From a bacterium (GTDB lineage Bacteria; Patescibacteriota; Patescibacteriia; Veblenbacterales; UBA10138), in assembly GCA_020057885.1 (NCBI GenBank), contig JAGVEX010000019.1, positions 84,045 to 148,044 of the forward strand: 64,000 nt of DNA, read 5' to 3'. Shown here one piece after another: positions 16,218 to 62,631 of this stretch (position 1 is its first letter; the number at the start of each line of letters is the position of its first letter). Both the position numbers and the translations under genes were made by a program. Below the pieces are notes generated by a model that worked only from the letters and a program-made list of their open reading frames with translations, did not search any database and was not told the DNA's origin.

Positions 16218-16237
16218 AAAAATATTCATATATTACT

Positions 16238-16272
16238 TAGAATTTAGATATTAGGATTTAGATATTAATTTA
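16238..16272 (+). promoter_or_regulatory. Heptad array 'tagaatt tagatat taggatt tagatat taattta', ending 8 nt before the trpS ATG
   Basis: Strict 7-nt periodicity. The same motif family lies immediately upstream of four minus-strand genes in the accessory cluster. Confidence 0.45.
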
Positions 16273-16279
16273 CTATATT

Positions 16280-17272
16280 ATGTTCCCTAAAAATAAAGTT
16301 ATTTTCTCTGCCGCCCAGCCGACTGGCGAGCTTCACTTGGGCAATTACCTAGGCGCTCTTAAAAATTGGGTGCACTTACAGCGCGATAATCAATGTTTTT
16401 ATGCTATTGTGGATTATCACGCTATTACCATTCCTTATGATCCCAAAGATTTTCCTAAAAAAGTAATGGATTTGGCACTGGATTATTTAGCCTTAGGCAT
16501 AGATCCTGAAAAATCCGTGGTGTTTATACAATCACACGTGCCCGAACACACTGAACTAGCCTGGATTTTAAATACCATTACACCGCTTGGGGAATTGGAA
16601 CGCATGACGCAGTTTAAAGACAAAGCTGAACAGCAACGCGGTTCTATTAATGCTGGATTATTAAACTACCCTGTTTTAATGGCGGCGGATATTTTGCTTT
16701 ATCAACCTGACTTGGTGCCTGTGGGTGAAGATCAAACCCAGCATGTGGAACTGACGCGCGTTATTGCGCGCAAATTCAACAGCGCTTTTGGCGAATATTT
16801 TAAAGAACCAAAAGTTTACGAAGCTACTATCGCGCGTGTAATGTCGCTCTTGGAGCCTGCTAAAAAAATGTCAAAATCTTTAGGGCCTAATCACTGTTTG
16901 GCTTTAAATGACCCGCCTGAAGTAATCCGTAAAAAAATTGCCAAGGCTGTTACAGACGAAGGCGGCTTGGCTGAAAACAGAGTTTCCGGCGGAAAAAATT
17001 TACTAGAACTTTTTAAAGTATTGTCGGATGATAAAGCTACCAAGGACGCTTTTGAAGAGCAATATAAAGCTGGAGAACTTAAGTATGCTGAATTCAAACC
17101 CGCTTTAGCCGAAACAATTATCAAAGTATTGGAACCAATTCAGGCCCGTCGTGCTGAACTAGCAGCCAAACCGCAAGAGGTAACTAGAATCTTACTAGGC
17201 GGCCGCGACAAAGCCAGATTAATTGCCCAAAAAACTTTACAGGATGTGAAAGAAAGAATGGGTTTAGTTTAA
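16280..17272 (+). CDS. trpS: Tryptophanyl-tRNA synthetase
   Basis: Class I motifs: 'ELHLGNYLG' (HIGH-like) and 'KMSKS'. 330 aa. Confidence 0.92.
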   Translation: MFPKNKVIFSAAQPTGELHLGNYLGALKNWVHLQRDNQCFYAIVDYHAITIPYDPKDFPKKVMDLALDYLALGIDPEKSVVFIQSHVPEHTELAWILNTITPLGELERMTQFKDKAEQQRGSINAGLLNYPVLMAADILLYQPDLVPVGEDQTQHVELTRVIARKFNSAFGEYFKEPKVYEATIARVMSLLEPAKKMSKSLGPNHCLALNDPPEVIRKKIAKAVTDEGGLAENRVSGGKNLLELFKVLSDDKATKDAFEEQYKAGELKYAEFKPALAETIIKVLEPIQARRAELAAKPQEVTRILLGGRDKARLIAQKTLQDVKERMGLV

Positions 17273-34986: not shown

Positions 34987-35019
34987 AATACAAAATTAAA
35001 AATTTAACATTTTACATTT

Positions 35020-37508: not shown

Positions 37509-38168
37509 TTATCTAATAAACGCCTTTAGTTCATCTACAGTAAGTGTACCACTATACACCTTATCTTTAGTAATAAAATAAGGCGTACCATCCACCCCCA
37601 AAGCTGTTGCTTCGGCCATATTATACTGTATTAATGGCAAGGTTTCGTGTTTATCTAAACAATGGGCAAAGCTTGTTAAATCCAAATCTAAATCTGCCGC
37701 CAAATTACGATAAAAACCGGCACTCAAATTATTTTGATTAGCAAATAATTTACTATGAAATTCCCAAAATTTACCCTGCTTACCCGCGCACTGCGCCGCC
37801 TCGGCCGCCGCCCGCGCCTCGCCATGCTCTGGTAAAGGAAAATCTTTCCATACTAAACGTACCTGACCCTTACTACCCCCCACTACTTCTGCCAACACGG
37901 GAACCATATCAGCACAATAAGGGCATTCAAAGTCACTAAATTCTATTAAAGTTGTGGGAGCACTATTATTACCCAAAATTGGATCATCTGGCAAAATAGT
38001 AATTTGACCAGGTGATTTGGTGGGTGAATTATTAGTGGTATTAGTACTTAAATTTGATGACTCAGATGTTGGCTTGTTATTTTGACCACGCAATTGCCAA
38101 ATTGCTATAACAAATACTACTAAAATGGGTATAAGCAATAAAGCTAATGGACTACGCCGAGCTGTCAT
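37509..38168 (-). CDS. DsbA-like thiol:disulfide oxidoreductase (thioredoxin fold, membrane-anchored)
   Basis: 'FSDFECPYCADM' (CxxC), an N-terminal transmembrane helix, and 219 aa. Confidence 0.7.
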   Translation of the reverse strand: MTARRSPLALLLIPILVVFVIAIWQLRGQNNKPTSESSNLSTNTTNNSPTKSPGQITILPDDPILGNNSAPTTLIEFSDFECPYCADMVPVLAEVVGGSKGQVRLVWKDFPLPEHGEARAAAEAAQCAGKQGKFWEFHSKLFANQNNLSAGFYRNLAADLDLDLTSFAHCLDKHETLPLIQYNMAEATALGVDGTPYFITKDKVYSGTLTVDELKAFIR

Positions 38169-38257
38169 AAAATAAATATAAGAATTACGAATTATGAATC
38201 ACGAATCAAGAATAAAATTAAATTCATCATTCGGTATTCATGATTCAAAATGTTTTA
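38169..38257. repeat. Intercistronic heptad-repeat hairpin ('gaattac gaattat gaatcac gaatcaa ... tcatcat tcggtat tcatgat tcaaaat')
   Basis: 7-nt periodic 'GAATnnn' arm, then the complementary 'TTCnnnn' arm. It fills the whole spacer between two minus-strand genes. Confidence 0.5.
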
Positions 38258-39523
38258 CTATTGTAATTTTACGCTTCTAAGCTTGCCACTGGTATCGGTA
38301 AAATAAAGTATTTTTCCATCCTGAGAAATTGTTAAATTAGTAGCCGTGAGAGCAGTGCCTGTTTCGTCTATTGGCTCAGCCACCAAAGTGGTAGAACCAG
38401 TTTGCAAATTAACACGATAAATATAATCGGGAATATTATTGGCCATCTCACGTGTAAAACCAGCGCCTTCAGGCAACTCCTTGGGCACCGCGCAATAAGC
38501 CACCTCACCAGATAAATTACATTTATCCGACCAAGTAGCCAAACCTAAAGACTGTTTGTTGGAACCCACACTATCTGTAGCGGCATCTACCAGCCATAAT
38601 TCTGGTTTATAATTTGTTGTATCACTATAAACAGAATAAAGTAGTTTTTTACCATCGGGTGTCCAATTCGACTCAAAGCCCCGGCCATCAACTGTTAATT
38701 GCGGAAAATTTTCCCCATTTAAACCTATCAAAAGAACATTTTGTTGAAACAAGCCAGCTGGCTCACCAGTGCGCGACAAGGCCACTACTTGATTATTAGG
38801 AGACCATTCAACATCAACTTTATCAGCATTTTCGCCCATTGCTTCTATACCGGTAAGCCCCGAACCGTCTGGATTTACTGTAGTAATCCAATTATTAGAT
38901 AAACTATCCCCTAAATACTTACCGGCGATTTTTTGTCCATCACTCGAAAAAGAAAATTCAGTCATCTCTTTGGGCAAAGTATATTGTTTTTTACTCTGGA
39001 AATCATATAACACATTCGCGCCATCGGGAAATTCTAAAATAGCGCTATTGCTACTGGGTGCCCAAGTAACGGTTTGAACCTGGGGATATAAGGCGTCGGT
39101 TAAAAGACTTTTTGCACCGTCTGGAGAAATTTCATAAAATTTACCATCAGCCGCGTTATAATAGCGAACACTATCTCCGGTAGCACTGGCAGGAAACATT
39201 GTTGAGCCGCTAGTTAAAGCTGTAGCGGCTGTGGCACCACCAACAGCCACTGGCGAACCAGGTTGATTTGTTAAACCAGCATTAACATTAACGTTTACAT
39301 TTACATTAGAAATCGGCAAATTAACTCCGCCTGGACCACTTACATTAACATTGCCGTTTGTGGTAGGAGGAAAACCGGTTGGGCCATTTACGTTAACATT
39401 ATTATTGGGCAATGCTTGTTCTGATTTAGTAAATAAAATAAACAATAACCAAGCTAAAACACCAATAGCTATTACAACACCAACTGTTAATAAAATTTTA
39501 CGACGATCAATATTCTCAAACAT
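38258..39523 (-). CDS. TolB-like beta-propeller (PD40-repeat) protein with an N-terminal transmembrane anchor and an (NVN)n low-complexity linker
   Basis: Transmembrane helix, 'NVNVNGPTGF...NVNVNVNVNAG', then repeated 'DG.K..Y' propeller-blade motifs. Confidence 0.45.
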   Translation of the reverse strand: MFENIDRRKILLTVGVVIAIGVLAWLLFILFTKSEQALPNNNVNVNGPTGFPPTTNGNVNVSGPGGVNLPISNVNVNVNVNAGLTNQPGSPVAVGGATAATALTSGSTMFPASATGDSVRYYNAADGKFYEISPDGAKSLLTDALYPQVQTVTWAPSSNSAILEFPDGANVLYDFQSKKQYTLPKEMTEFSFSSDGQKIAGKYLGDSLSNNWITTVNPDGSGLTGIEAMGENADKVDVEWSPNNQVVALSRTGEPAGLFQQNVLLIGLNGENFPQLTVDGRGFESNWTPDGKKLLYSVYSDTTNYKPELWLVDAATDSVGSNKQSLGLATWSDKCNLSGEVAYCAVPKELPEGAGFTREMANNIPDYIYRVNLQTGSTTLVAEPIDETGTALTATNLTISQDGKILYFTDTSGKLRSVKLQ

Positions 39524-39531
39524 ATACTAAT

Positions 39532-40149
39532 TTATTTAAGATAGCTTCTCATTTGTTTCAGCAACTCAGTTTTTACTTCGGACCAATTGATGCGTTCCAA
39601 AAGAATGGGGTTAGGTTCACGTTCGGCTTCAACGAAATAAACCAAACTTTTAAGCAAATGGAGATGATTATATTTTACACCTTTATACTTTTTATCAAAC
39701 CAATCTAATAACTGTTTCAAAGAATAAACGCGCAATAACACATACAAATCAAAAAAATCTTTGCGACTGCCTCGGCTAGAAATGGCTTGCAGTTTCATAC
39801 AGCCAATATCGGCTGGTGCGGCCAAATTTACTCCCTGATAAGATACTAACCGACGCAATAATTTATAAGGATAAAAAAGAAAACTTAATCTTATTCCAGC
39901 CAATCTAATATGCAAAGTACCAATGTCTTCTGAGACAACTGTTATTTTACCAATTTTAGATAGTTGCCTTTTAAGTAAGTTCGAAGAAAATTTATGCGCT
40001 GAAAACCAATCAAAATCCAGCGATTGCCTGTGGCCACACTGCAAAGCCAGGGCTGTTCCACCAGCCATATACCAATCTCCATTTTTTAAAATTCCTCCTA
40101 ACTTAGGCAGTAATCTTTTGGCAGTTGGTAGCAAAATTTCTTCATGCAT
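39532..40149 (-). CDS. AbiEii-family nucleotidyltransferase (type IV toxin-antitoxin toxin-like)
   Basis: 'MAGGTALALQCGHRQSLDFDWF' matches the AbiEii / DUF1814 N-terminal nucleotidyltransferase motif. 205 aa. Confidence 0.65.
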   Translation of the reverse strand: MHEEILLPTAKRLLPKLGGILKNGDWYMAGGTALALQCGHRQSLDFDWFSAHKFSSNLLKRQLSKIGKITVVSEDIGTLHIRLAGIRLSFLFYPYKLLRRLVSYQGVNLAAPADIGCMKLQAISSRGSRKDFFDLYVLLRVYSLKQLLDWFDKKYKGVKYNHLHLLKSLVYFVEAEREPNPILLERINWSEVKTELLKQMRSYLK

Positions 40150-40159
40150 ATTACTAACC

Positions 40160-40453
40160 TCATTTTTTAATAACTACCTTCCATAACGCCTTACTTTTAG
40201 CATCAAGCTCACGAGTTTTAACAATAACGTTATACAACAAACTTGGGGAATATATTTTTTTTATAACCTTCCAATCCCCAATATCGCCAAATTGCAAAAC
40301 ACGTTTAATAATAAAAGCGCTATGCTTTTTAGGTTTTAACGTTTTGGTTGCTATATCCCAAAAAAGACCTTGTGAAAATTTACTACTAAATAAGCTCATA
40401 TATAAATTATAGCATATTTTAATTGTTTTTACAACCTTTGCGGCTTTTACCAC
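40160..40453 (-). CDS. Small protein upstream of the AbiEii-like gene. It may be the cognate antitoxin.
   Basis: 97 aa, 10 nt upstream of the toxin-like gene on the same strand. No family recognised. Confidence 0.3.
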   Translation of the reverse strand: MVKAAKVVKTIKICYNLYMSLFSSKFSQGLFWDIATKTLKPKKHSAFIIKRVLQFGDIGDWKVIKKIYSPSLLYNVIVKTRELDAKSKALWKVVIKK

Positions 40454-40511
40454 TACTTACAATACACGCGCAAAAATCCAAAACCTAAATCACTTTAAAT
40501 TATCAACATTA

Positions 40512-40537
40512 CACATTGTGACGGCCGTCAAAAAGTG
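40512..40537. repeat. GC-core palindrome P2 ('cacattgtgacggccgtcaaaaagtg'), the left border of PaaX-like cassette 1
   Basis: Perfect 12-bp core 'tgacggccgtca'. The arms match apart from two mismatches. It sits within a left flank that is about 85% identical to 63515-63593. Confidence 0.55.
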
Positions 40538-40559
40538 TTATATTGATTAAAGGAATATA

Positions 40560-41108
40560 TTGTTAACAATATTAATGATAATTAATTTTATGGAACAACT
40601 AAGTCTAACAAAACAAATCCTTCTTACCTTACTCGATGGGGCTTCTGAATTAAGAGGCATGCATAAAAATATGAGACTTATATCTCCTTTTCGCGGCATA
40701 ACCAAAACGCCAAATTATTATGTATCGCTTGGACGACTCAAACGGCGTGGTTACATAAAACAAATAAATAATAACTATTATTTAACTTTACAGGGCAAAC
40801 AATTAGCGCAACATTTACTTGTCAGACAAGCTCTTAAGATAAAAAGCCAACGTTGGGACGGGCAATGGCGTATGGTGTGTTTTGATATTCCAGAAAAATT
40901 AAGACGCGAACGAGCGGCTTTACGCAATTTTCTTTATCGTTCCGGATTTCGAAAATTACAAGAAAGTGTCTGGCTAACACCATATGACGTAATAAAAGAA
41001 GCTGTTGACACATGGAAAGAACTTGGGCTGGCGCCTTATGTTCGCACAGCGCTTATAAAATCGCTTGATAACGAAATTGAATTTAAAAAACTATTTAAAC
41101 TCACCTAA
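40560..41108 (+). CDS. PaaX-like protein with an N-terminal winged-helix and a C-terminal Cas2-like motif (cassette 1)
   Basis: The N-terminal half looks like a wHTH. The C-terminal half has 'WRMVCFDIPEKLRRERAALRNFLYRSGFRKLQESVWLTPYD', a Cas2/PaaX_C-like beta-alpha-beta core. It is a paralogue of ORF 53388..53939. Confidence 0.55.
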   Translation: MLTILMIINFMEQLSLTKQILLTLLDGASELRGMHKNMRLISPFRGITKTPNYYVSLGRLKRRGYIKQINNNYYLTLQGKQLAQHLLVRQALKIKSQRWDGQWRMVCFDIPEKLRRERAALRNFLYRSGFRKLQESVWLTPYDVIKEAVDTWKELGLAPYVRTALIKSLDNEIEFKKLFKLT

Positions 41109-41204
41109 ATCACGACGGTCGTTATTAAATTTTAAGTAAATTAAAACAACTTACTTAATATTAAGTAAGTTGTTAATAAATTTATAACTTTTTTATCTAT
41201 CTAA

Positions 41205-41230
41205 CACTTTTGGTCGGTCGACCAAAAGTG
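41205..41230. repeat. GC-core palindrome P3 ('cacttttg-gtcg-gtcg-accaaaagtg'), the right border of cassette 1
   Basis: 9-bp arms 'cacttttgg' / 'ccaaaagtg'. The centre is the palindrome 'ggtcgacc' carrying a 4-bp 'gtcg' tandem duplication. Confidence 0.55.
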
Positions 41231-41289
41231 TAAGGTTTAAAAAATAAGGGTTAATAATAGTTTAAATTAAATAAATTGTTTAGACTAAA

Positions 41290-41372
41290 ATGTTCAAGCT
41301 AAAATTCCAATAGCTATTACAACACTAATTGTTAATAAAATTTTACGACGATCAATATTCTCAAACATAAAT
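41290..41372 (-). pseudogene. Duplicated 5'-fragment of the TolB-like gene (24-codon remnant)
   Basis: About 90% identical to 39450-39523. It encodes 'MFENIDRRKILLTISVVIAIGILA' then a stop. Confidence 0.45.
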
Positions 41373-41373
41373 T

Positions 41374-42732
41374 TTATTCCTCTAACTTACTAACACAATG
41401 AGCGCCAAACTTACTCACCTTGCAATCCTTTTTACAAACATCATAATAACATAAGGCCATCTTAGGTTCAAAGCTATCACAATCACTAAATTGGGAACAG
41501 GTTTGAATAATCTCATTAACCCAAAGACTTTGAATATTATCATTACATGGCTTCCCCATAAATACAGCGTTCCAATTTGGATAGCATGCATTCAAATATA
41601 AAGCACAAGAATTGGTCACACCGCCACAATCAGCATCAGAAGTGCATATATCACCCTGTTTAAGACCACTGTCACATTTTTGAACGCGATAACTAAACTG
41701 ATTACAAAAATTAGTAAAAGACTGAATAGTGCTATCACCCCAATCAGGTAATCCATATATACTCTTGGCTATATCCATATTTATAGCCATACAGGCTTCG
41801 TTGGGATTTAAACACTCATAGTCCTCCTCAGATATACCAGTATTACCTACGCGAACGCAGCCACCCTTACCACTCTCACACGACGACCCAATACATGACT
41901 GTCCATTAATACTCTCTTTAACACCACACTTATAATGAATACTACTATCAAGTGGATCAGGGTCTGGACACCATTTTCCATATAACTCCGTTTTAACTAT
42001 ATCCATATTAAGACGAGTAAAATTAACAAGTTTAGGATTTACTAAATTAAGAAGTGTGTAAGAAATAAGAGCTAGCACTAAACCTGTGATTGCAGAAATA
42101 ATAGCGTCATTGGCATCTTTAATACGCTCTGGTGAACCAGCAGCCATAATACGCTTAAATCCGCCCCACATTACCATTACTACCGAAGCTACGGCCAACA
42201 TGGCAATAAAAAATTTGTAAAATGCCGCCAAATATCCAGGAAAACCACCACTAACAACGCTGCCGTAACCAGGAATTGGTATTTGTAAATTTATATCCGG
42301 AGTTTTTACAAAACAACGCGCTGACGGGGCCGTACAATTAGATGAATCACTTCTATCCTCATCAAAATCACCTTTCGCGCTATTACATTGCTCTTTCGTC
42401 CAACAATTATTAAAAATTGACCCCGTGTCAGTTGTTTTTGCTCCCGAAACTTTTGTACAACTATTATCCAGATAAGGTTTGCATAGCCAAGTATATACAT
42501 TATAATTTGAATTTATTCTATTTAACTCATCTGTTTTATTAATACAATCATTTGAAGACAAATTTGGAAAACATTCAGCTACTGCAGTAACATATGTTGT
42601 ATCTATAGACACCTTGTCACATCCACAAGAATCCGCCTGCGCGGGCATAGCAAAAATAAACACACCAAACATCAAAACGGCTATTTCAACTATTATTGGA
42701 ATTTTCTTTAATAAATGCATAGCTTTACTCAT
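41374..42732 (-). CDS. Cys-rich secreted protein with a VirB2/TrbC-pilin-like double-transmembrane core (paralogue B)
   Basis: A signal peptide, the core 'FYKFFIAMLAVASVVMVMWGGFKRIMAAGSPERIKDANDAIISAITGLVLALISYTLLNLVNP', and more than 30 cysteines in the N- and C-terminal extensions. Confidence 0.5.
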   Translation of the reverse strand: MSKAMHLLKKIPIIVEIAVLMFGVFIFAMPAQADSCGCDKVSIDTTYVTAVAECFPNLSSNDCINKTDELNRINSNYNVYTWLCKPYLDNSCTKVSGAKTTDTGSIFNNCWTKEQCNSAKGDFDEDRSDSSNCTAPSARCFVKTPDINLQIPIPGYGSVVSGGFPGYLAAFYKFFIAMLAVASVVMVMWGGFKRIMAAGSPERIKDANDAIISAITGLVLALISYTLLNLVNPKLVNFTRLNMDIVKTELYGKWCPDPDPLDSSIHYKCGVKESINGQSCIGSSCESGKGGCVRVGNTGISEEDYECLNPNEACMAINMDIAKSIYGLPDWGDSTIQSFTNFCNQFSYRVQKCDSGLKQGDICTSDADCGGVTNSCALYLNACYPNWNAVFMGKPCNDNIQSLWVNEIIQTCSQFSDCDSFEPKMALCYYDVCKKDCKVSKFGAHCVSKLEE

Positions 42733-42802
42733 TTTAACACACTTTATAGTATTAAAGCGCTAATAATCAATTTACTTAAACGCTTGCCATAATACTAAAA
42801 AA

Positions 42803-43285
42803 TCATTTAAACGGACTAAATATATCATTCGCCACAGAACATACCAAATTTAACCACTGCCCACCCAAAGCCTCGCAAATTACCTCCGGCTGATCTTTAA
42901 TAGTAATAAACAAACCAATTATTATAAACAAGATAAATAATACAAGAAAATCTATAATTATATATAACACCTTACGCCATAATGATAATTTCCAACTGGG
43001 TCTAATAATCGGCAAAACCAGTTCAGCATTAATAGTAAGAAAAATTATTATTAACGGAAACACGAGCCAAGAAAATGGCAGTAGGGCTAATTTAAAATTA
43101 TCAAGGCCTTTTTGCAGTGCTGTATCAGCCGCTTTTTGGATTAAACTAGGACCCGATCCTTTGCTGGATTCTACTTTTAGCATTTTTAAATAACCACCGC
43201 GTCGACCAGCCTCTAGGTTATCTTTCATTACCTGTTTATTATACTCTTCAGCTGATTCTTGATTATTGTTATCTTTATCGGGCAT
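42803..43285 (-). CDS. Hypothetical membrane protein (160 aa, 2-3 transmembrane helices)
   Basis: Hydrophobic segments. Lies within the type IV secretion-like cluster. No family recognised. Confidence 0.35.
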   Translation of the reverse strand: MPDKDNNNQESAEEYNKQVMKDNLEAGRRGGYLKMLKVESSKGSGPSLIQKAADTALQKGLDNFKLALLPFSWLVFPLIIIFLTINAELVLPIIRPSWKLSLWRKVLYIIIDFLVLFILFIIIGLFITIKDQPEVICEALGGQWLNLVCSVANDIFSPFK

Positions 43286-43377
43286 AATATTAGTGAATTA
43301 CGAATCATGAATCACGAATTAACAATTAAAAATAAATTCAGTATTCAGTATTCGTGATTCGGTATTCAAAAATCAAA
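43286..43377. repeat. Intercistronic heptad-repeat hairpin ('gaattac gaatcat gaatcac gaattaa ... ttcagta ttcagta ttcgtga ttcggta ttcaaaa')
   Basis: Strict 7-nt periodicity. 'gaatcacgaa' pairs with 'ttcgtgattc'. It fills the whole spacer between two minus-strand genes. Confidence 0.5.
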
Positions 43378-43941
43378 CTACTCACTCTCCCAACTCGCGC
43401 TATCTACCAACCAATTTTCTCCTGACTTACTTAAACTAACACGCAGGGTAGCATAAGAAATTTTAACCTCACCGTCACGGGTGAATACTTCCTGGCGCTG
43501 GGTTGAGATGGTTAATTCGGCCGCGCTGTCAGTTTGTCTATCTACTTTGGCCACCAAAGCTTTGGTAGTAACACTATAAAAACCAGCTGGCTTGGTTCCG
43601 GATTTAATAATACTATTCACCCTCGTTTGAAAAGAGGGGGTTAAAATGCCTGTTAAATTCTTTAAATTTTCATAAGGCATATCGTTGGAATAGGTGCCAT
43701 AGCGTTCGGCAAAGTTAAGCGCTAAAACACGCGCCGAGAGTGTGGTATCTGTTAGTTTGGGGATCGGCTCAACAACGCCAGTTGGCGTATTTATTGTTGG
43801 TGTATTTGTTGAAACTGCTGGCTGATTAATATTTGTGTTTACATTTGTATTATTATTTTGTAACCAAAAATAAAGCCAAACCGCTAGTAAAATGACTAAA
43901 ATTATTACTAAAACTAAAAGAATTTTGGAGCGACGAGACAT
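43378..43941 (-). CDS. Bitopic membrane protein, possibly a VirB8-like scaffold
   Basis: N-terminal transmembrane helix, a Thr/Asn-rich linker, and a roughly 120-aa extracytoplasmic domain. Its position next to VirB4 suggests the role. Confidence 0.3.
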   Translation of the reverse strand: MSRRSKILLVLVIILVILLAVWLYFWLQNNNTNVNTNINQPAVSTNTPTINTPTGVVEPIPKLTDTTLSARVLALNFAERYGTYSNDMPYENLKNLTGILTPSFQTRVNSIIKSGTKPAGFYSVTTKALVAKVDRQTDSAAELTISTQRQEVFTRDGEVKISYATLRVSLSKSGENWLVDSASWESE

Positions 43942-43960
43942 AAAATAATTAATAAAAGTT

Positions 43961-44110
43961 AATAAAATCCTAAATCTTAAATCCTAATATCTAAATAAAT
44001 TTTAATAACAGAAAATTTAATTAAATTATTTTGTTTTTAGATTATGTTTGTAAATTTTACGCATTGGGAATTGGGAATTATTTAGGGTTTAGACATTAAG
44101 ATTTGAAATT
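43961..44110. promoter_or_regulatory. About 150-bp intergenic repeat unit (copy A). It holds 'TAAATCC'-type heptads and 'cattgggaattgggaatt' and also occurs at 46808-46945.
   Basis: Copies A and B are about 85% identical by eye. On the minus strand the heptads read 'tagatat taggatt taagatt taggatt' and sit upstream of the ATG at 43941. Confidence 0.45.
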
Positions 44111-44188
44111 TATATTATATTCTTTAATCCACCTGCAACAATTAATTTAATATTCTTAATTCATGGTTCGGTATTCGTGATTCTAAAA

Positions 44189-46054
44189 CTAACCAATGTC
44201 TGGCTCTTTCAGGCTTGCTTCAAATTCCTTTTTGGCTTGCTCTATTTCCAAAAGCTGACGAGGATCAGAAGTAATAAGCTGATCTTCGGTGTAAGAAGCC
44301 ACTATTTTAATAGCCGCGTGCTTAGACCCGGCAAAGAAAATGCCCTCACCCACACCACACTCCAAAAGTAAATATTTTTCTCCCTCTGTCAGTAAGAAGG
44401 TTTTTACTACTTTATCAATTCCAGCAGGAGACTGTTTGAGCAATAATTGCAAGGCTGAGTTATTAACAATTGCCTGACCATAGGGCGAGGTTAAGAAATC
44501 ATTTACATCTTGTGTAATTGTGGTAACGCCAAGATAATATTTACGACAACGCTTAACTAACGCAAAAATAAACTTGGCGCTATCTTCGTTTTGCATTAGC
44601 CACCACGCTTCATCAATAACTAAAACACGTTTTTTCATTTCTGAGCGCACTACATTCCAAATGTAATTAACGATTGTATAAATCGCAATCGGCCGTAACT
44701 CATCTTCTAAATCGCGTACAGAAAATACTACTAATTGGTTTTTTACATCCACGTTAGTGGGCCTGTTAAAAAGTCCGGCAAAAGTACCGTCGGTATATTT
44801 TTTAAGCCTCAATACCAAATCTTCGCCCCCTTGCATACCCGCGAGCACCTCTTGAAAATCAGCCATCACCGGCGACTCCACTTTGGTTAAATCGGAATTG
44901 GGCGTAATATCTTTTTTGGCATAAGTTTCTAAGAGGGCTCTATCAACCAACGAATCCTCTTGATGAGTAAGGGTGCCAAGCATTAAACGCATTAAACCTT
45001 TTAGGGTAATTACAGCGGAACGAATAATATCGCCTGTATTTACCTCGCCCACTGGCCTGGGTAAATCAAAGGGATTAATTTTAGATTCAGAATTCAAAGA
45101 AATATTAATGTAAGCACCACCCACAGCATCGGTTAAATGCTTATATTCCATTTCTGGATCAATAATAATTACATCGGTACCCATCATTAAACTACGCAAC
45201 ACTTCCAGTTTTACAGCATAGCTTTTGCCAGCGCCCGAAGTGGCAAAAACAGTCATATTGGCATTTTGCAAACTAAATCTATCAAATAAAATCAAGGAAT
45301 TATTGTGTCTATTTATACCGTATAAAATACCACTATCACTAGTTAATTCCGAGGAAATAAAAGGGAAAGAAGAAGCGGCGGGCGAACTGTTCATATTAAA
45401 GTAAACTTGTAGTTCGTCGTTGGCGAGGGGTAAGGTGGAGTTAAAGCCTTGTTCTGATTGCCAAAGAGCGCGCCGTGAATAAACCAACTTTGAACCAAGC
45501 ATGCTTTCTACTTCCTCTGTTATTTTGTCTAACTCTTTTTTATCTGGAGCATACAGAGTAAGATAAAGCCCGACTTGAAAAAAACGTTCCGTGCCTTGAG
45601 TTAAACTGTCGCGCAATTGTTCAATATCGTGCAAAGCTGTTTCGCGAATCGGGTCGCGCGGAGCGCCTTTATCATGGTCGGCCACCAGTTGGGCCTCAAT
45701 TGCACCCACACGATTACGCAGTTGTTTTAAAATGACTTCTGTTTTTACATTATAGAAAAACATACTTACATCCAAAGTCGCGTTCATATTCACAATTGGC
45801 GCAAACCAACCAACCGAGATATAGCGAGGATAAGTGAGTATAAATAAAGTACGCAAATATACGCCGTTTAACTCCACGTGTTCCGATTGAACACGAAAAG
45901 CAGCTGGTGCAATTAAATCACGCACCTTTACCGAGCCCTCGCGCAATAAGCGCTCAGCCTCTAAGAGTTCCTTTTCAGTAGCTTGCCCCAACTCTTCCAC
46001 GGGCGGAGGGGGCGGCGCTAATTCACTGGTTACTTTTGATACATCAATGGCCAT
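44189..46054 (-). CDS. VirB4/TrbE-family type IV secretion ATPase, C-terminal ATPase-containing part
   Basis: Walker A 'ATSGAGKSYAVK', Walker B 'RVLVIDEAWWLM', and a VirB4-like middle region. 621 aa. Confidence 0.75.
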   Translation of the reverse strand: MAIDVSKVTSELAPPPPPVEELGQATEKELLEAERLLREGSVKVRDLIAPAAFRVQSEHVELNGVYLRTLFILTYPRYISVGWFAPIVNMNATLDVSMFFYNVKTEVILKQLRNRVGAIEAQLVADHDKGAPRDPIRETALHDIEQLRDSLTQGTERFFQVGLYLTLYAPDKKELDKITEEVESMLGSKLVYSRRALWQSEQGFNSTLPLANDELQVYFNMNSSPAASSFPFISSELTSDSGILYGINRHNNSLILFDRFSLQNANMTVFATSGAGKSYAVKLEVLRSLMMGTDVIIIDPEMEYKHLTDAVGGAYINISLNSESKINPFDLPRPVGEVNTGDIIRSAVITLKGLMRLMLGTLTHQEDSLVDRALLETYAKKDITPNSDLTKVESPVMADFQEVLAGMQGGEDLVLRLKKYTDGTFAGLFNRPTNVDVKNQLVVFSVRDLEDELRPIAIYTIVNYIWNVVRSEMKKRVLVIDEAWWLMQNEDSAKFIFALVKRCRKYYLGVTTITQDVNDFLTSPYGQAIVNNSALQLLLKQSPAGIDKVVKTFLLTEGEKYLLLECGVGEGIFFAGSKHAAIKIVASYTEDQLITSDPRQLLEIEQAKKEFEASLKEPDIG

Positions 46055-46060
46055 AAAAAT

Positions 46061-46098
46061 TTAAATCCTAAATTCGAAATCCTAAATCCTAAAAAATT
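46061..46098 (-). promoter_or_regulatory. Heptad array ending 3 nt before the VirB4-C ATG (minus strand reads 'taggatt taggatt tcgaatt taggatt taaattt')
   Basis: Same motif family as the arrays at 16238, 46808 and 62486. Confidence 0.45.
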
Positions 46099-46107
46099 AA
46101 TTTTTAA

Positions 46108-46797
46108 TTAGTTTGTTTCTACTTGCAATTTATCTAATTCGACTAATTTTTGTTGCTCTCTAATTTCGGGATTATAAGTTGTATAATAAAGCTCAATCAA
46201 ACTTTGCGTATCCAGCCTAACCGCTTTTACACCCATAGAAGATAAGCCCGATTGAATATATCCGGTGCGCCTATCCAAAGCCTCGGCGTAACGGTTAAAA
46301 TCGGTACGCGATAATTTTACTGAATAAGCCGCGGAAAAAATTGAAGTAAAGCGTCTAAAAAAAGAACGCCGTTTATCTGACCTGTGGTCATATGTTACCA
46401 CCACATAAAACCGTTTGGTCATAATATCACCTAAACTAATAAGCTCGCGAATATAAGCGAGATACTCTGTAATTTGCACGCGTAAAAGTTCGTTAGTTTG
46501 TTGTTTTTGTAAAGCCTCCAAATTAGTCAAATATTTATCTATATTAAGTTTACGCGATTGAATAACTATCTGTAGAGGAGAATCCAAAGAATTAAGAAAA
46601 TTAATATAGGCCTGAATAGTGGCATTTTGTTCATCTTCACTTTTAAGCGCAAAATTAACCGAGGAACACAAAAACACCGAGCGCAGAGTGCCATCTTTCA
46701 TCACCACACAATTATCGTGAATTTCGGCAATATCTAAATACGAACTGGTAGGCGGACCGGCTTTGGCTTTTTTTGGTTTAGTTTCAGTTTTGGACAT
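46108..46797 (-). CDS. VirB4 N-terminal domain (CagE/TrbE/VirB-type) encoded as a separate ORF
   Basis: 'CVVMKDGTLRSVFLCSSVNFALKSEDEQNATIQAYINFLNSLDSPLQIVIQSRKL' follows the characteristic VirB4 N-domain pattern. It is in a different frame from the ATPase ORF and separated from it by 53 nt. Confidence 0.55.
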   Translation of the reverse strand: MSKTETKPKKAKAGPPTSSYLDIAEIHDNCVVMKDGTLRSVFLCSSVNFALKSEDEQNATIQAYINFLNSLDSPLQIVIQSRKLNIDKYLTNLEALQKQQTNELLRVQITEYLAYIRELISLGDIMTKRFYVVVTYDHRSDKRRSFFRRFTSIFSAAYSVKLSRTDFNRYAEALDRRTGYIQSGLSSMGVKAVRLDTQSLIELYYTTYNPEIREQQKLVELDKLQVETN

Positions 46798-46807
46798 AAA
46801 ATATAAA

Positions 46808-46945
46808 TTAAATCCTAAATTCTAAATCCTAATATCTAAATAAATTCCAATACCAAAAACCAATTTAATTATTTTTAGATTACACTTATCAATTTTACAC
46901 ATTGGGAATTGGGAATTATTTAAGATTTAGACATTAAGATTTAAG
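46808..46945. promoter_or_regulatory. About 150-bp intergenic repeat unit (copy B) with 'TAAATCC' heptads, ending 13 nt before the VirB4-N ATG
   Basis: See copy A. The minus strand reads 'tagatat taggatt tagaatt taggatt taattta'. Confidence 0.45.
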
Positions 46946-46962
46946 GCTTAACTAACATATCT

Positions 46963-47418
46963 TTACTCTTCGCTCTTACTAACTTCATCTTCTTCTGGCT
47001 TATAGGCTCCTCCTGTATCCACTAATAAAGTAAGTTGTTGTAAACGTGATTGTTGCAAAAGCGGCTTAGTGCGGCCACTAGCAGTGGCTACTATGGGAAT
47101 TGACTTATGAATAGATTCTTGCAAATCATCAGTGCTAATAACTTTTTGCCACACGCGGAGTTTGGGTTTTTTTAAGGTTTGTATGAGGTTAAACAAAAAG
47201 TAATGAAATGGCATACCGTTAAATTTCACAAACGCAAACATAATACCTATGCCAACTGTTATCACTGTCTCCAGAACAAACCAACCAAAAGCCGCTAATT
47301 TAAACTCCAAAAAAATAACAAAACCAACCAGCATTATAATTATAAACTGACGTATGGTAAGAGGACCGATTATTTTATCCTCGACGTCTATAAATTGTGG
47401 CACGACAATTTGCTGCAT
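46963..47418 (-). CDS. PrgI / VirB3-like small type IV secretion membrane protein
   Basis: 'MQQIVVPQFIDVEDKIIGPLTIRQFIIIMLVGFVIF' matches the PrgI-family N-terminus. Two transmembrane helices. It lies immediately upstream of the VirB4 genes. Confidence 0.5.
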   Translation of the reverse strand: MQQIVVPQFIDVEDKIIGPLTIRQFIIIMLVGFVIFLEFKLAAFGWFVLETVITVGIGIMFAFVKFNGMPFHYFLFNLIQTLKKPKLRVWQKVISTDDLQESIHKSIPIVATASGRTKPLLQQSRLQQLTLLVDTGGAYKPEEDEVSKSEE

Positions 47419-47458
47419 AGGTGAAAGTAAGTGTAAGAGTATTGAGTAAGAGTAAAAA

Positions 47459-47803
47459 TTAATTAGCCATTAAACCAGTTAACATGCGAGCTATTTCTTC
47501 ACTTTGTTGATAAATGATATCAAATCTAGGTTGCGTTATAAGTGATTTATCTACTAGCAACATACTTACGTTGATAACTTCATAAACTGAACCTTTGGCA
47601 ATATTGTAAAAATTATTTGCTTCTTTTTTAGATTTTCTGCCACTACCCTCAGCAATGTTATTAGGCACCGAAATAGCTGCTCTAATTAAATTATTGCCTA
47701 TAGTATAACGATAATCATTTGGTAATTTTTTAACGTCATCTATTATGTCGCTACAAAACCTTTGTGATTTTTTCCATACTTCTAAGGTTTCAAATTTAAA
47801 CAT
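47459..47803 (-). CDS. Four-helix-bundle protein (TIGR02436 / '23S rRNA intervening sequence protein' family)
   Basis: 'FETLEVWKKSQRF', 'NIAEGSGRKSKKE' and 'IAKGSVYE' signatures. 114 aa. Flanked by 'GTAAGAG' heptad repeats. Confidence 0.7.
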   Translation of the reverse strand: MFKFETLEVWKKSQRFCSDIIDDVKKLPNDYRYTIGNNLIRAAISVPNNIAEGSGRKSKKEANNFYNIAKGSVYEVINVSMLLVDKSLITQPRFDIIYQQSEEIARMLTGLMAN

Positions 47804-47829
47804 ACTCTTACTCTTAACTCTTACTCTTA

Positions 47830-50052
47830 CTAAAATCTTATCTTCTGATTAAAATCTATTATGGCGTTGAATTCGGCTTCGGAAAGTGTTTGTTCGCCTT
47901 GTGTTTGCAAACTAGCCACTATTTCAACAATTGATTTTTCTTGTTCAATGCTAGCTCGGCCTAGTTTTAAATAGAGTTGGTACACAGGCGAAGCTTGCCA
48001 AGAACGCACTGCTTCCACCCGCCGCGATACTGAAGTTTCGCCAATCAAATCTATTTTGGCTCGAACTTTATTCAAAGCCTCCACGGGCGATGAATCAAGC
48101 CTCCTAAAATCAACTAGGTTCAAACTTTTTAACTCTTCCAGTGGACCTAAGGTTCGTGGTGGCGCTTTAATATCTGTTAATTGTGGCCTAATGTTGTTAG
48201 TTGCTCCTAATTCTTGTCCACTTGTTCCTAATTTGGGTGGTGATGGGGGCTGTGCCCCGTGATCAACTACAGTTGATTTTACGGGGGGTGGGGGGGCGGC
48301 TTTGGAAATTTCTTTTAACAATTCCTCCCGCCAATTTTTAAATTTATCCTCACTAAGCGGCTTGTCTTCAATTTTAGTTGCTTGGGCAGCTACCCTAATA
48401 TCTGAACTCTGAATTTCTTTAGGATTTAGCCTGCCTGCGACTCGATTGAGCTCGCCGAAATCCGGTAGGTAGGGATTTTCGGATTTAGGATTTAATTCAC
48501 CAATCTTATCACTCTTGGGTAAAACCACTTGGGGGCCAGTGACCGGTGATGGAGGGCTAACAACTATTGGCTTATCTTCCCCCATTAATTTATCCAACTC
48601 GCTTTGCATTTTTTCCTGTTCTGTTTGTGGCTTACTATTTACCACTGGTGCAGGTTCTTGCTTCGTGATTCTTACTTCGTGATTCTTACTTCGTGATTCA
48701 AACTCACTTTTAGCATCTTCAATAATTTTTATAACTTGTTCTGTTTTATCAACCGGCAAACCTAAACCGCCCGAAGTTACTGGTTTTAATAATGTTTCGC
48801 GCACTTCCACCACATTGCGCACATCTTTTAAGTGTGATACAAACAAATTTATAAACCTGCGCTTGCCAACTTCGTCCTTAAAACTAAAATTATGTTTTTT
48901 AATTGTTTCATCGGCGAGCACTCTTAATTTTTCTTCTAATGTATTCATGATTCGTAATTCAGTATTCGGTATTCTTAATTTATCAACTTCTTTCTCATCT
49001 TCCAAGTTAAAAAAGAATGCCGGTTCAGTAGTTTTTAAGGCTTGAGGAACAAGTTGATTTGTTATTGGTGATACTAATTCTTCTGTCTGTACTCGTGCTT
49101 TGTAATCAGATGCAGTTAATTTTGTGGAGACTGGTCCTGAAGCAGACATTTTAACCACTGCTGGCGCTAACCGAACTGAAATTGGTAGCTCTGCCACCTC
49201 AGTTGCTATTGGTACAGGGACTATTCCAAATGATTGCTGGATAGTTATCGTATTATTTTTCTGTAAATCAATTTTACTTGCCTCTTTATTATTTAAAATA
49301 CTGTTTACTTTAGCGAAAATATCCTTAATACTATTTTCATTATATTCCTCAAACCAACCACCTTTCACCCAACCAGATTTAGCCCCGTCTATCGGAATAC
49401 TTTCCTCTAACCCCTCTAATTCAGTTGATAACAAATGGCAATGTTCATAAACATTTATCAAGTCTCTAAATTTGTCACGCGAGGCAGGTGACAACACCCT
49501 TAATAATTGCGATGAGGAAAAATACTGTTCTTGTTGATATTTATCACTTCTTTTATTGGCCGTAAATACTAAAAAATCTTTTAAAAAGCCGCCAACGGTT
49601 AGGTTGTTTTCTTTCCAATCTGGTAATCTTATTTTTTCTTGATTATTTAACAAAACGTCTATGATTTGTTTTTTTAATTTATTTCTATCTTCATAAACTA
49701 ATATACTTAATAAAGCGCTTTTAAATTTATTATTCAGTTTAAAATCTTCTATCTGCCACGCATCATTAATATGATAATGAAATTGTTCAACAATCTCACT
49801 TTCGTTTAACAATGATAATCCTACCCACTTGCAATGAGCGATGATCTTTTGATAATTACTATATAATTGACCAAACTTCGAATCAATTTTACTCTCTTTT
49901 AAACCAAACTCTAAAGATCTCGCTAATTTATAAGCAGACTCATAATCATCATACTTTTCTATATCACTCAAGCTAGTCAACATCTCCTGATAAACTACAA
50001 GCGATGTTAATGGATATTGTTCAATTAATTGTTTTATACTTGCCATAGACAA
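47830..50052 (-). CDS. Hypothetical cytoplasmic protein (740 aa) of the type IV secretion-like cluster, with a Pro/Lys-rich low-complexity C-terminal third
   Basis: No transmembrane helix or signal peptide. Heptad-type DNA repeats are embedded in the coding sequence at 48660-48700 and 48945-48980. Confidence 0.45.
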   Translation of the reverse strand: MSMASIKQLIEQYPLTSLVVYQEMLTSLSDIEKYDDYESAYKLARSLEFGLKESKIDSKFGQLYSNYQKIIAHCKWVGLSLLNESEIVEQFHYHINDAWQIEDFKLNNKFKSALLSILVYEDRNKLKKQIIDVLLNNQEKIRLPDWKENNLTVGGFLKDFLVFTANKRSDKYQQEQYFSSSQLLRVLSPASRDKFRDLINVYEHCHLLSTELEGLEESIPIDGAKSGWVKGGWFEEYNENSIKDIFAKVNSILNNKEASKIDLQKNNTITIQQSFGIVPVPIATEVAELPISVRLAPAVVKMSASGPVSTKLTASDYKARVQTEELVSPITNQLVPQALKTTEPAFFFNLEDEKEVDKLRIPNTELRIMNTLEEKLRVLADETIKKHNFSFKDEVGKRRFINLFVSHLKDVRNVVEVRETLLKPVTSGGLGLPVDKTEQVIKIIEDAKSEFESRSKNHEVRITKQEPAPVVNSKPQTEQEKMQSELDKLMGEDKPIVVSPPSPVTGPQVVLPKSDKIGELNPKSENPYLPDFGELNRVAGRLNPKEIQSSDIRVAAQATKIEDKPLSEDKFKNWREELLKEISKAAPPPPVKSTVVDHGAQPPSPPKLGTSGQELGATNNIRPQLTDIKAPPRTLGPLEELKSLNLVDFRRLDSSPVEALNKVRAKIDLIGETSVSRRVEAVRSWQASPVYQLYLKLGRASIEQEKSIVEIVASLQTQGEQTLSEAEFNAIIDFNQKIRF

Positions 50053-62477: not shown

Positions 62478-62485
62478 ACTATAGT

Positions 62486-62520
62486 TAAATCCTAAATCCT
62501 AAACTCTAATTTCTAAACAA
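62486..62520 (-). promoter_or_regulatory. Heptad array ending 10 nt before the giant-gene ATG (minus strand reads 'tagaaat tagagtt taggatt taggatt taactat')
   Basis: Same motif family as the arrays at 16238, 46061 and 46808. Confidence 0.45.
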
Positions 62521-62631
62521 TAAATGAATTAATTAATTTAAGTTTTAAATTATTATTTTGAATGCTGAACTGTGAAAGTTAAATTATTTGGATTTTGTTT
62601 GACGTTTGAGCTTTGAATTTTGATATTTATA

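Follow-up and report, generated by a model that had tools for sequence, protein, structure and literature searches.

Heptad-armed palindromes and a PF05635 gene in the operon spacers of a Veblenbacterales secretion cluster

In Coxiella burnetii's 23S ribosomal RNA (rRNA) intervening sequence (IVS), the terminal inverted repeats pair to give a 28-bp stem, and the open reading frame (ORF) for the protein S23p lies in the loop. Two or three GACAGAT heptamers, in a number that varies with the strain, are located just upstream of the S23p ATG, and the first of them is the point at which recombinant RNase III cleaves the stem in vitro (PMC4990558). The S23p protein of Xanthomonas has been described as a homopentamer (PMC4990558). 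Heptanucleotide repeats are also known in another setting: the TAACTGA repeats consist of one sequence, are nearly always direct (1 inverted set in 170), and have no gene family linked to them (PMC4679880). Here we describe palindromes whose arms are built of tandem 7-nt units (heptads) and which fill spacers of a type-IV-secretion-like gene cluster. The cluster is present in a 64,000-nt stretch of contig JAGVEX010000019.1 (hereafter, the window) from a member of the Veblenbacterales (Patescibacteriota; assembly GCA_020057885.1). These spacer hairpins are very probably gene-less members of a family of heptad-armed palindromes, the complete form of which carries a gene for a four-helix-bundle protein of the S23p/PF05635 family.

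The complete cassette and the gene-less hairpins

In the window, the complete form is found at the junction between a 740-aa ORF and the gene for PrgI. Its 5' arm (47804..47829, minus strand), GTAAGAG x3.5, fills the spacer from the stop codon of the 740-aa ORF to the ATG of the four-helix gene. The cargo (47459..47803, minus strand; 114 aa) is located in the loop, and the 3' arm (47419..47458, minus strand), made of CTCTTAC-type heptads, ends at the PrgI start codon. Both arms contain heptads only (upstream, TAG-TAAGAGTAAGAGTTAAGAGTAAGAGT-ATG; downstream, TAA-TTTTTACTCTTACTCAATACTCTTACACTTAC...), and the duplex between 47804-47829 and 47419-47458 is predicted at -32.1 kcal/mol (z -5.2). Here, as in the survey spacer folds and the metagenomic flank comparison given below, the shuffles preserve mononucleotide composition only. 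The GTAAGAG sets that a preliminary description of the window had seen on either side of this gene (47419-47462 and 47804-47830) do bracket it, and they are inverted to each other around 47459-47803. The encoded protein matches PF05635 (E = 1.4e-29) and TIGR02436 (E = 6.7e-28) and, weakly, Avd; solved structures related to it by sequence are PDB 2gsc, which was deposited with five chains, and 2rld.

Other spacers of the cluster hold palindromes without a gene. Hairpin C (38169..38257, minus strand), a GAATnnn x4 / nnnATTC x5 palindrome, takes up the whole spacer between the PD40-repeat gene upstream (38258..39523) and the DsbA-like gene downstream (37509..38168). Hairpin D (43286..43377, minus strand) is a GAAT-type palindrome in the spacer between a 187-aa gene and a 160-aa gene. 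In both, Tandem Repeats Finder (TRF) reports period 7, and the plus strand reads 4-5 GAATnnn units, a short AT loop, and 4-5 reverse-complement units; C and D are 85% identical and are two copies of one element, with stems at 38191-38251 and 43294-43375, respectively. Compared with 200 dinucleotide-preserving shuffles for each window spacer, C folds at -18.2 kcal/mol as minus-strand (sense) RNA (z -3.0, equalled by 1/200 shuffles) and at -18.9 kcal/mol as plus-strand RNA (z -4.5, 0/200). For D the corresponding values are -19.2 kcal/mol (z -3.1, 2/200) and -23.0 kcal/mol (z -5.5, 0/200). The view that hairpins fill 38169-38257 and 43286-43377 is therefore upheld, with GAATnnn/nnnATTC arms and folds (z -3 to -5.5) that are more stable than those of shuffled controls. 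The further statement that the hairpins end about 10 nt from the downstream start codon is right for D, in which 8 nt separate the stem end from the ATG; it is not right for the stem of C, which ends 22 nt from the start codon, the C array ending at ~11 nt. The coordinates given in the preliminary description, for all its features, are exact or off by a few bases.

Directly 3' of the VirB4 stop codon there is a single GAAT-type arm (44140..44188, minus strand; arm proper, 44160-44183). As had been reported, only one arm is present, and no fold is detected at 44160-44183 in comparison with shuffles. This arm matches the 5' arm of a cassette in a related locus (L011; 93% over 27 nt) and is the leftover 5' arm of a cassette.

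The cluster to which these elements belong is encoded on the minus strand and includes the 2768-aa, 1002-aa and 740-aa ORFs, the PF05635 four-helix protein, PrgI, TraC-like, VirB4, pilin-like proteins, the PD40-repeat protein and the DsbA-like protein, followed by RadA and MPG genes. Homologues of VirB4 come from Candidatus Veblenbacteria or Patescibacteria; the best species representative is 88% identical, and synteny is kept. An identical VirB4 is encoded on a contig from SRR6489632. For the survey of relatives, the window was joined with VirB4 ± 10 kb in related genomes to give 82 loci (1.49 Mb), in which genes were called by a greedy longest-ORF heuristic. Since the loci are phylogenetically related, tests across them are not independent and their p-values overstate independence.

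In these loci, jackhmmer identifies 28 PF05635 ORFs. They are spread over many junctions, always in the orientation of the operon, and with few exceptions complementary heptad arrays abut their start and stop codons; the unit differs from copy to copy. Flanks complementary at z < -3 are present for 12/24 PF05635 ORFs versus 9/242 other genes of the same loci (p = 5.6e-6); z against shuffles is used here in place of raw duplex energies, which are confounded by G+C content and by start-codon calls. By blastn, the arms of C and of two further window elements described below (E and H) correspond to arms beside the four-helix genes of L014, L011 and L021, with 88-97% identity over 25-35 nt. The matches of the C arms to the four-helix arms of L014 and L011 are 88-93% over 25-35 nt, and the 5' arm of H matches the cassette arm of L021 at 97% over 30 nt. 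Because spacer arms match four-helix-flanking arms, the spacer hairpins and the four-helix brackets represent the same kind of element, a connection absent from the preliminary description.

The junction after VirB4 displays several forms of such an element. L014 contains a GAAT arm, an intact four-helix gene and an ATTC arm, L011 contains the arms and a decayed gene, and the window has kept just the 5' arm of the GAAT-type cassette (44160-44183). In L098, whose VirB4 is 98% identical, a TAAATCC-type hairpin that is gene-less in the window holds a four-helix ORF starting at ...TCCCAATG, a junction motif that is retained in the loops of E and G. The idea that the loops are internally deleted four-helix genes is unproven and was not adopted: blastn gives arm matches and no gene-body match, and only the ...TCCCAATG junction is common. 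At the junction of the 740-aa ORF and PrgI, no four-helix gene is called in L002, L004 or L005, and L012 (VirB4 81% identical) has a GTAAGAG-armed four-helix cassette at the same junction as the window; thus, some cassettes are old. Even when only arrays over 200 nt away from every four-helix gene are counted, 14/15 loci with the gene have them versus 26/67 without it, and the density is higher in the former (p = 5e-7).

The association extends to other phyla. A tblastn search of plasmids finds PF05635 genes in Nostoc, Anabaena, Calothrix, Geminocystis, Pseudanabaena, Aulosira, Picosynechococcus, Stanieria, Riemerella and Gemmatirosa. Short-period arrays, mostly heptads, are located at one or both ends of 12/14 plasmid PF05635 genes (Cyanobacteriota, Bacteroidota, Gemmatimonadota), with units such as GGGAACA/TGTTCCC, CTACACC, TTTTCCC, TGTCACC and AACCTTG. 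The array pairs are inverted in 10/12 cases and direct in 2/12. The direct ones, AAAAGCT x14 upstream and AAAAGCC x9 downstream in a Pseudanabaena galeata plasmid (L091) and a period-8 CTCCTGCC type on both sides in a Gemmatirosa plasmid (L101), mean that arm complementarity is not universal. Most plasmid cassettes lie between co-directional genes, including cas6-cas4 (twice), cas10-cmr3, and a conjugation-type gene with a TraM-recognition domain. The CRISPR-cas cases are cas6/cas4 in Anabaena sp. 90 and Pseudanabaena galeata and cas10/cmr3 in Picosynechococcus (L088, L091, L103). The cassettes that adjoin a TraM-recognition-domain gene (L089, L099) are on plasmids typed MPF_T, a setting that echoes the secretion-cluster location in the window.

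A metagenome scan returned 80 PF05635 loci, of which 73 were usable. A period-7 array lies within 80 nt of the gene in 47/73, and on both sides in 14; among the other periods from 4 to 12, period 8 is seen in 3, period 12 in 1, and the rest in 0. The density of period-7 arrays is 6.9/kb within 100 nt of the ORF versus 0.35/kb further out (20-fold), and the flanks are complementary at z < -3 in 38%. These cassettes have a polarity: upstream arrays are purine-rich (28:7) and downstream arrays pyrimidine-rich (26:7; p = 5e-8), and GGAG or AGGA is present in 14/36 upstream arrays and in no downstream array. This polarity is strand-specific. It would make sense if the upstream arm also provided the ribosome-binding region of the cargo gene, with the downstream arm masking it.

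Heptad elements are dispersed, nested and rapidly exchanged

Besides the GAAT type, the window contains a second family, absent from the preliminary description, that is composed of TAAATCC/TTTAGGA and ATTCCCA heptads (elements E, F, G and H). Composite hairpin E (43942..44110, minus strand), with nested CTAAATC-type and ATTCCCA-type arms and a loop of ~70 nt, ends upstream of the 187-aa gene. Composite hairpin G (46798..46962, minus strand; -29.4 kcal/mol, z -2.7), a second TAAATCC/ATTCCCA copy of ~150 nt, lies in the PrgI / TraC-like spacer. E and G are 81% identical to each other and also 81% to an element at another junction in L096/L098; thus, this ~150-nt type is found at three different junctions. 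Array F (46055..46107, minus strand), TTTAGGA x4 with one arm and a TRF score of 50, occupies the TraC-like / VirB4 spacer, where no fold is detected. It is the counterpart of the 3' arm of a 165-nt composite hairpin at the same junction in L096/L098, and it can be read as a chimera, with the 5' part resembling L095 and the 3' arm resembling L096. Hairpin H (62478..62631, minus strand), in the spacer between the TSP3-repeat gene and the 2768-aa gene, combines CAAAnnn arms with TTTAGGA-type arms and folds weakly (z -1.6). Heptad unit types in the window include GAATCAC, TAAATCC, ATTCCCA, GTAAGAG, CAAAATC and AAAATGT, and one related locus (L018) carries six or more types. As a separate observation, L044 has CTAAACC x4 at 9095-9143 and at 9870-9918, the complement of which, TTTAGGG, is the plant-type telomere unit; the TTTAGGA of the window is one base off this unit, probably by coincidence.

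Contigs whose VirB4 is 98-99% identical to that of the window differ from it in the elements found at shared junctions. At the TraC-like / VirB4 junction, the window has the 53-nt single arm, L095 an unrelated 81-nt AAAAATC hairpin, and L096 and L098 the 165-nt composite hairpin. Between VirB4 and the next gene, the window has the GAAT arm and a composite hairpin, and L095 has a GTAAGAG/CTCTTAC hairpin. At this junction L096, L097 and L098, whose contigs end inside the spacer, have the GAAT arm and a TAAATCC-type arm, to which L098 adds the start of the four-helix gene. The contigs of L001, L096 and L097 end inside elements or ~30-35 nt upstream of VirB4, at element F; short-read assemblies may collapse or break arrays. 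Element boundaries coincide with stop and start codons. The family is dispersed, nested and rapidly exchanged.

The periodicity itself is specific: 7 is the sole short period in excess in the window, and it does not characterise AT-rich DNA there in general. With a 75% self-match cut-off, lag 7 gives 79 positions in the window, versus 12 or fewer at any other lag except 14. Lag-7 arrays are present in 7/38 window spacers, for which shuffles lead one to expect 0.1 (maximum 2 in 200), and lags 5, 6, 8, 9 and 10 give an array in only 0-1 of the 38. The preliminary description had named, as an outcome that would refute it, lag-7 periodicity without positional preference; in this one 64-kb window, 7/15 spacers within 34.4-63.4 kb, the secretion cluster, have such arrays versus 0/23 elsewhere (Fisher p = 5e-4). 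A short AAAATGT-type array (34987..35019, minus strand; lag-7 match 0.86) fills the RadA-to-MPG spacer. The sole clear intergenic array outside the cluster, which is below the 75% count threshold, is a TTAGAAT / TTAGATA array (16237..16267, plus strand; TRF period 14, score 55) just upstream of gene 16280..17272. A scan of the window with Rfam 15 at the gathering score finds two tRNAs only, with no rRNA and no family at the heptad elements.

Across the 82 loci there are 241 period-7 arrays, versus 51, 75, 33, 3, 1 and 1 for periods 5, 6, 8, 9, 10 and 11. Although the DNA is 91% coding, 188/241 (78%) are intergenic. Arrays are present in 91/463 co-directional spacers (20%), 6/89 convergent spacers (7%) and 1/60 divergent spacers (2%). 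In relatives, the typical layout is a stop codon, an array, a loop, the reverse-complement array and a start codon, with median gaps of 11 nt from the stop codon and 8 nt to the start codon; arrays mostly have 4-5 units, and folds of z < -3 are seen in 48% of heptad spacers. Shine-Dalgarno motifs are found for 10% of genes in the clade and for 3% after heptad spacers. At one junction the unit may be GAATCAC, TTTCTAA, AGCTTTT, CTAAACC, TAACTCC or GACTACT, depending on the species, and heptad hairpins of unrelated sequence are located on both sides of VirB4 and at the PrgI / TraC-like and PD40 / DsbA junctions in many species. Relatives whose G+C content is 57% possess this operon as well, but their spacers measure 3-20 nt and lack arrays; therefore, the hairpins are not needed for the operon to exist. 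Arrays are also present in loci of 56-60% G+C (L039, L041).

Heptads also occur in frame within genes. The preliminary description had placed repeats of the same vocabulary inside the 740-aa ORF (47830..50052), and both sites are indeed present and translated. At 48655..48699 (minus strand; TRF period 14, 3.2 copies, 96% matches), the sense strand reads TCACGAAGTAAGAA x3.2, with two GAAT-family heptads per unit, and encodes ESRSKNHEVRITK. At 48941..48974 (minus strand; period 14, 2.4 copies, 70%), GAATACC / GAATACT / GAATTAC encodes RIPNTELRIMN. The two sites correspond to aa 359-370 and aa 451-466 of the protein. Orthologues have other arrays at the 48941-48974 position, namely GGCGAAT x5 in L014 (read as MANGEWRMAN), GGCAAAT in L017, GAATCAA in L012 and GAAATCC x4 in L018. 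They also hold other heptad arrays at the 48655-48699 site, and L012 has AATCGCC x5 at one of the two sites. At the 48655-48699 site, the second of the two, homologues P0122 and P0123 are exactly 7 aa (three heptads) shorter. The only indel seen is of three units and keeps the frame, which offers no support for phase variation at the in-ORF arrays. In-ORF copies are all in the GAAT sense, because only this orientation is stop-free in all three frames. The suggestion that parts of the 740-aa ORF were seeded by repeats has support at a small scale only, for two stretches of 7-14 aa with arrays in orthologues and a 7-aa indel. The nearest full-length homologue of this ORF is 57-60% identical, in contrast with VirB4, for which the same database contains 98-99% identical homologues. 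Compared with P0121-P0123, the 740-aa protein is a mosaic, in which the C-terminal ~400 aa are ~85-90% identical (by eye) and the N-terminal ~330 aa are far more divergent; the change from one to the other comes just upstream of the first heptad array in the ORF.

Two in-ORF copies that the preliminary description lacked lie within ORF 2866..4260, for which a Wzy_C (O-antigen-ligase-like) domain is confirmed. One is a complete in-frame hairpin (3961..4062, minus strand) with CAAAnnn / nnnTTTG-type arms (for example, CAAAATC and GGATTTT), and the other is a second in-frame array (3529-3573, minus strand). The same ORF contains a G+C-rich palindrome at 3340-3420 (minus strand; -38.7 kcal/mol), GTCATTGCGAG ... 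CTCGCAATGAC, whose in-frame translation, VIASPEFVEERGNPNRLLRCFAPRNDS, falls inside the Wzy_C match (aa 248-410). Elements of this 3340-3420 type are found in the loops of heptad hairpins in L021 (2356-2618) and L018 (18084-18289); thus, palindromes nest in one another.

Several other features of the window stand apart from the heptads. Two minus-strand genes inside the secretion cluster, one AbiEii-toxin-like (39532..40149) and the other of the DUF6922 type (40160..40453), probably represent an inserted toxin-antitoxin pair (39532-40453); in L002, L004 and L005, the corresponding position has no called genes of this kind. Genes with a PaaX_M (Cas2-like) domain lie on the opposite, plus strand at 40560-41108 and 53388-53939, and L005 has one at the equivalent upstream position. 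The two are likely regulators of the secretion cluster, and the divergent spacers that adjoin them contain no heptad arrays. At the edge of the window (1-2198, minus strand), an H+-pyrophosphatase gene is split over two frames that overlap at ~1527-1590. The match of ORF 1524..2186 is limited to profile positions 1-137 of 645, and a frame stays open from 1590 to the window edge; the split reflects a frameshift, a pseudogene or an error in the assembly.

Mechanism and alternative explanations

We lean, with modest confidence, toward the view that the elements are mobile or recombining, IVS-like palindromes that live in operon spacers. Arrays would lengthen and shorten by slippage of 7-nt units, and elements would spread or swap at the DNA level, either by array-array recombination or by some transposition route. 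They may be promoterless and transcribed with the operon, as suggested by the co-orientation of 28/28 PF05635 genes and by the lack of visible room for a promoter beside them. In the transcript, an imperfect double-stranded stem of 25-35 bp could serve as an RNase III substrate, as in the 23S IVSs. Cleavage would then split the polycistronic mRNA between cistrons and leave stem halves at the new ends; in complete cassettes, it would also free the four-helix mRNA and unmask the cargo start codon. At least 90% of CPR (Candidate Phyla Radiation) genomes retain rnc, the gene for RNase III (PMC12641178), and no RNase III signature motif is found in the 64-kb window or the flanking loci. By analogy, intercistronic RNA processing, one of the roles raised in the preliminary description, is the most plausible molecular consequence; processing by RNase III in particular is a reasonable candidate to which we assign somewhat less than an even chance. 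The elements themselves may be passengers, tolerated or selfish, whose effect on operon expression is incidental, rather than conserved regulators.

Several observations weigh against mobile, IVS-like palindromes that are processed as RNA. Arrays without a four-helix gene within 10 kb are present in 26/67 related loci, and no gene remnant is recognisable in the loops of C and D, so that the gene-less form could be the primary one and not a derivative. No transposase is present among the ORFs scanned and no recombinase was identified; nor was any target-site duplication, although there was no systematic search for duplications. In-frame hairpins in the Wzy_C ORF would destroy its mRNA if they were cut efficiently. 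In 73 survey spacers, the predicted stems contain 245 G-U pairs in the sense strand versus 245 in the antisense strand, and the sense strand folds better in 35/73 spacers, the antisense strand in 38. Because the G-U excess expected from long-term selection on the RNA is absent, conservation at the RNA level is not claimed. Rather, we argue that arm complementarity is made at the DNA level and decays neutrally, and that it is not kept by compensatory change in a functional RNA. A candidate pattern of a conserved 4-nt core plus three variable bases (GAATnnn, AGCTnnn) was also dropped, given a column mismatch variance of 0.668 versus 0.672 expected.

This evenness of mismatches over the 7 columns, together with the absence of G-U strand bias, the fast turnover and the three-heptad indel between homologues of the 740-aa ORF, is what would be seen if the arrays were products of plain slippage, that is, neutral heptanucleotide simple-sequence repeats in AT-rich spacers whose hairpins are incidental and have no connection with either the four-helix gene or RNA processing. 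Heptanucleotide repeats are the commonest 5-11 nt class in many prokaryotes and are ascribed to slippage of the polymerase, according to Mrazek (2007) as cited in PMC4679880. Yet slippage alone gives no reverse-complement arm, and arms match even at variable positions, with nearly half of the heptad spacers below z -3. It also leaves unexplained the 20-fold, nearly period-7-exclusive enrichment beside PF05635 ORFs and the opposite base composition of the upstream and downstream arrays (28:7 vs 7:26); arrays are not confined to AT-rich loci, being present at 56-60% G+C, and those of the window cluster in one gene cluster. We therefore regard slippage by itself as improbable. Stem-loops block PNPase, and hairpins selected at particular operon junctions as mRNA stabilisers, translation occluders or attenuators could set the stoichiometry of the secretion proteins, as do the REP sequences (repetitive extragenic palindromes) and intercistronic stem-loops of E. 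coli. Such a role gains from the enrichment in co-directional spacers, from hairpins of unrelated sequence at the VirB4-flanking, PrgI / TraC-like and PD40 / DsbA junctions of many species, and from the median distance of 8 nt to the start codon, a position at which ribosome binding would be impeded by a stem. CPR genomes also keep PNPase, a 3'-5' exonuclease (PMC12641178). It is nevertheless rather unlikely, since relatives of 57% G+C run the same operon without hairpins, a single arm, an 81-nt or a 165-nt hairpin may occupy one junction among strains with 98-99% identical VirB4, copies lie inside coding sequence too, and neither a compensatory G-U signature nor terminator features are seen.

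Arrays mostly of 4-5 units might instead be bound by a protein that reads 7-nt units, notably a pentameric four-helix protein, the repeats being its operator or packaging site. Avd, a relative of the four-helix protein, binds nucleic acid and a reverse transcriptase. PF05635 genes and heptads co-occur across phyla and within loci, and the five chains of 2gsc agree with the homopentamer described for Xanthomonas S23p (PMC4990558). However, specific recognition is unlikely when unit sequences within one genome are unrelated (GTAAGAG, GAATCAC and TAAATCC in the window; at least six types in L018), no core positions are conserved, and many arrays are in loci without a four-helix gene within 10 kb, so that we hold this explanation to be quite improbable. 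The preliminary description had offered attenuator hairpins as another possible role, and the elements could in principle be intrinsic, perhaps bidirectional, terminators separating genes that are each transcribed on their own: on the sense strand, TTATATTTATTTT comes after hairpin C, and symmetric hairpins could work both ways. The analysis supports neither. A scan for terminator-type sites, with a G+C-rich stem and a T run, finds 0 at the heptad elements, the regional total being 17 versus 14.7 in shuffles; the stems are AT-rich with internal mismatches, and the T run is missing after most 3' arms. The stem-to-start gap of 0-20 nt leaves no room for a promoter, and a consensus scan shows neither enrichment of promoter-like matches (71 versus 61 ± 9) nor any at the elements. 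With spacers of only 3-20 nt in the 57% G+C relatives and turnover at 98-99% VirB4 identity as well, attenuation by these hairpins is not supported, and termination is scarcely credible.

If the mobile, IVS-like palindromes are taken more broadly, PF05635 genes and inverted heptad arrays may together make up a single, widespread class of mobile elements not recognised before, "operon intervening sequences", with members in Patescibacteria, Cyanobacteriota, Bacteroidota, Gemmatimonadota and also Proteobacteria, there in the form of 23S IVSs. In such a class the Avd-like protein would be functionally tied to the generation, spread or processing of the repeats, and a large part of the unexplained bacterial heptad repeats, including the cyanobacterial short tandemly repeated repetitive (STRR) sequences and the window hairpins, would be its footprints or derivatives. 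We offer this generalisation tentatively and consider it doubtful as a whole. The S23p four-helix proteins are among the commonest bacterial proteins without a known role, and heptanucleotide repeats have been unexplained since ~1990; joining the two provides a testable context for both, namely a cassette whose polarity is defined, whose stem is in the size range of RNase III substrates and whose turnover can be measured. The result also identifies what fills many intercistronic spacers in a conserved CPR surface/secretion operon. It predicts that the operon mRNA would be cut at strain-specific places, which could diversify expression of the host-contact machinery. For annotation, the elements break short-read assemblies, add short peptides to proteins and create spurious spacers.

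Comparison with described systems

ORF-less forms are known among the 23S IVSs, and the heptad elements likewise exist with and without a gene. The element at 47419-47829 resembles an ORF-bearing 23S IVS, as found in Leptospira, Coxiella and others, in having a PF05635 ORF between terminal inverted repeats that form a stem of ~25-30 bp, little or no leader before the ORF, and strain-variable heptamers beside the start codon. The ORF in the loop is present at 47459-47803 and absent from the gene-less C, D, E, G and H. Unlike in a 23S IVS, the host is an mRNA operon spacer or a coding sequence rather than helix 9, 25 or 45 of 23S rRNA, where an IVS is transcribed within the pre-rRNA, both arms are heptads throughout, and a locus contains many copies with unrelated arm sequences. 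Excision by RNase III has been seen in vitro for the Coxiella IVS; here it would apply by analogy. Since they lie outside rRNA, the heptad elements resemble the ORF-bearing 23S IVSs but are not members of that family.

The window elements belong to the broad class of heptanucleotide simple-sequence repeats (STRR, TAACTGA), being tandem, non-random, mainly intergenic 7-nt units. Like the TAACTGA repeats of Beggiatoaceae, Cyanobacteria and Bacteroidetes (MacGregor 2015, PMC4679880), they often end a few bases from a start codon, the downstream genes mostly lack a Shine-Dalgarno sequence, and their phylogenetic distribution is sporadic. STRR1-3 and TAACTGA amount to one or a few fixed units in a genome; the heptad elements comprise dozens of different units, mostly paired in inverted orientation to give hairpins, and show an association with PF05635 genes.

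In position, the elements are also like REP sequences and bacterial interspersed mosaic elements (BIMEs). REP units are ~35 nt long, G+C-rich and conserved in sequence, and have a dedicated RAYT transposase; in contrast, the window arms are AT-rich, 28-45 nt long and not conserved in sequence between families. REP sequences and the intercistronic RNase III sites of phage T7 (R1-R5) are imperfect palindromes between co-transcribed genes, where they can stabilise upstream mRNA or split polycistronic RNA. The T7 sites are conserved and non-repetitive, and neither they nor REP sequences are built of heptads or carry a gene.

Rickettsia palindromic elements and miniature inverted-repeat transposable elements (MITEs) have a family consensus, and MITEs also have target-site duplications and a parent transposon. 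The heptad elements are like them in being short, dispersed, nested palindromes without a transposase that are located in spacers and in frame within genes (3961-4062, 48655-48699). Dispersed inverted-repeat copies of the MITE kind are indeed found (C and D; E, G and the L096/L098 element at its three junctions). Unlike in those elements, the only conserved properties here are the 7-nt periodicity and the complementarity of the arms, and the full-length form carries a non-enzymatic four-helix protein. In the searchable literature beyond PMC4990558, no paper was found that connects the S23p/PF05635 family with heptameric repeats. The IVS-like design and the heptanucleotide repeats are each of an already known kind, and the link of the four-helix gene to the heptads appears to be new.

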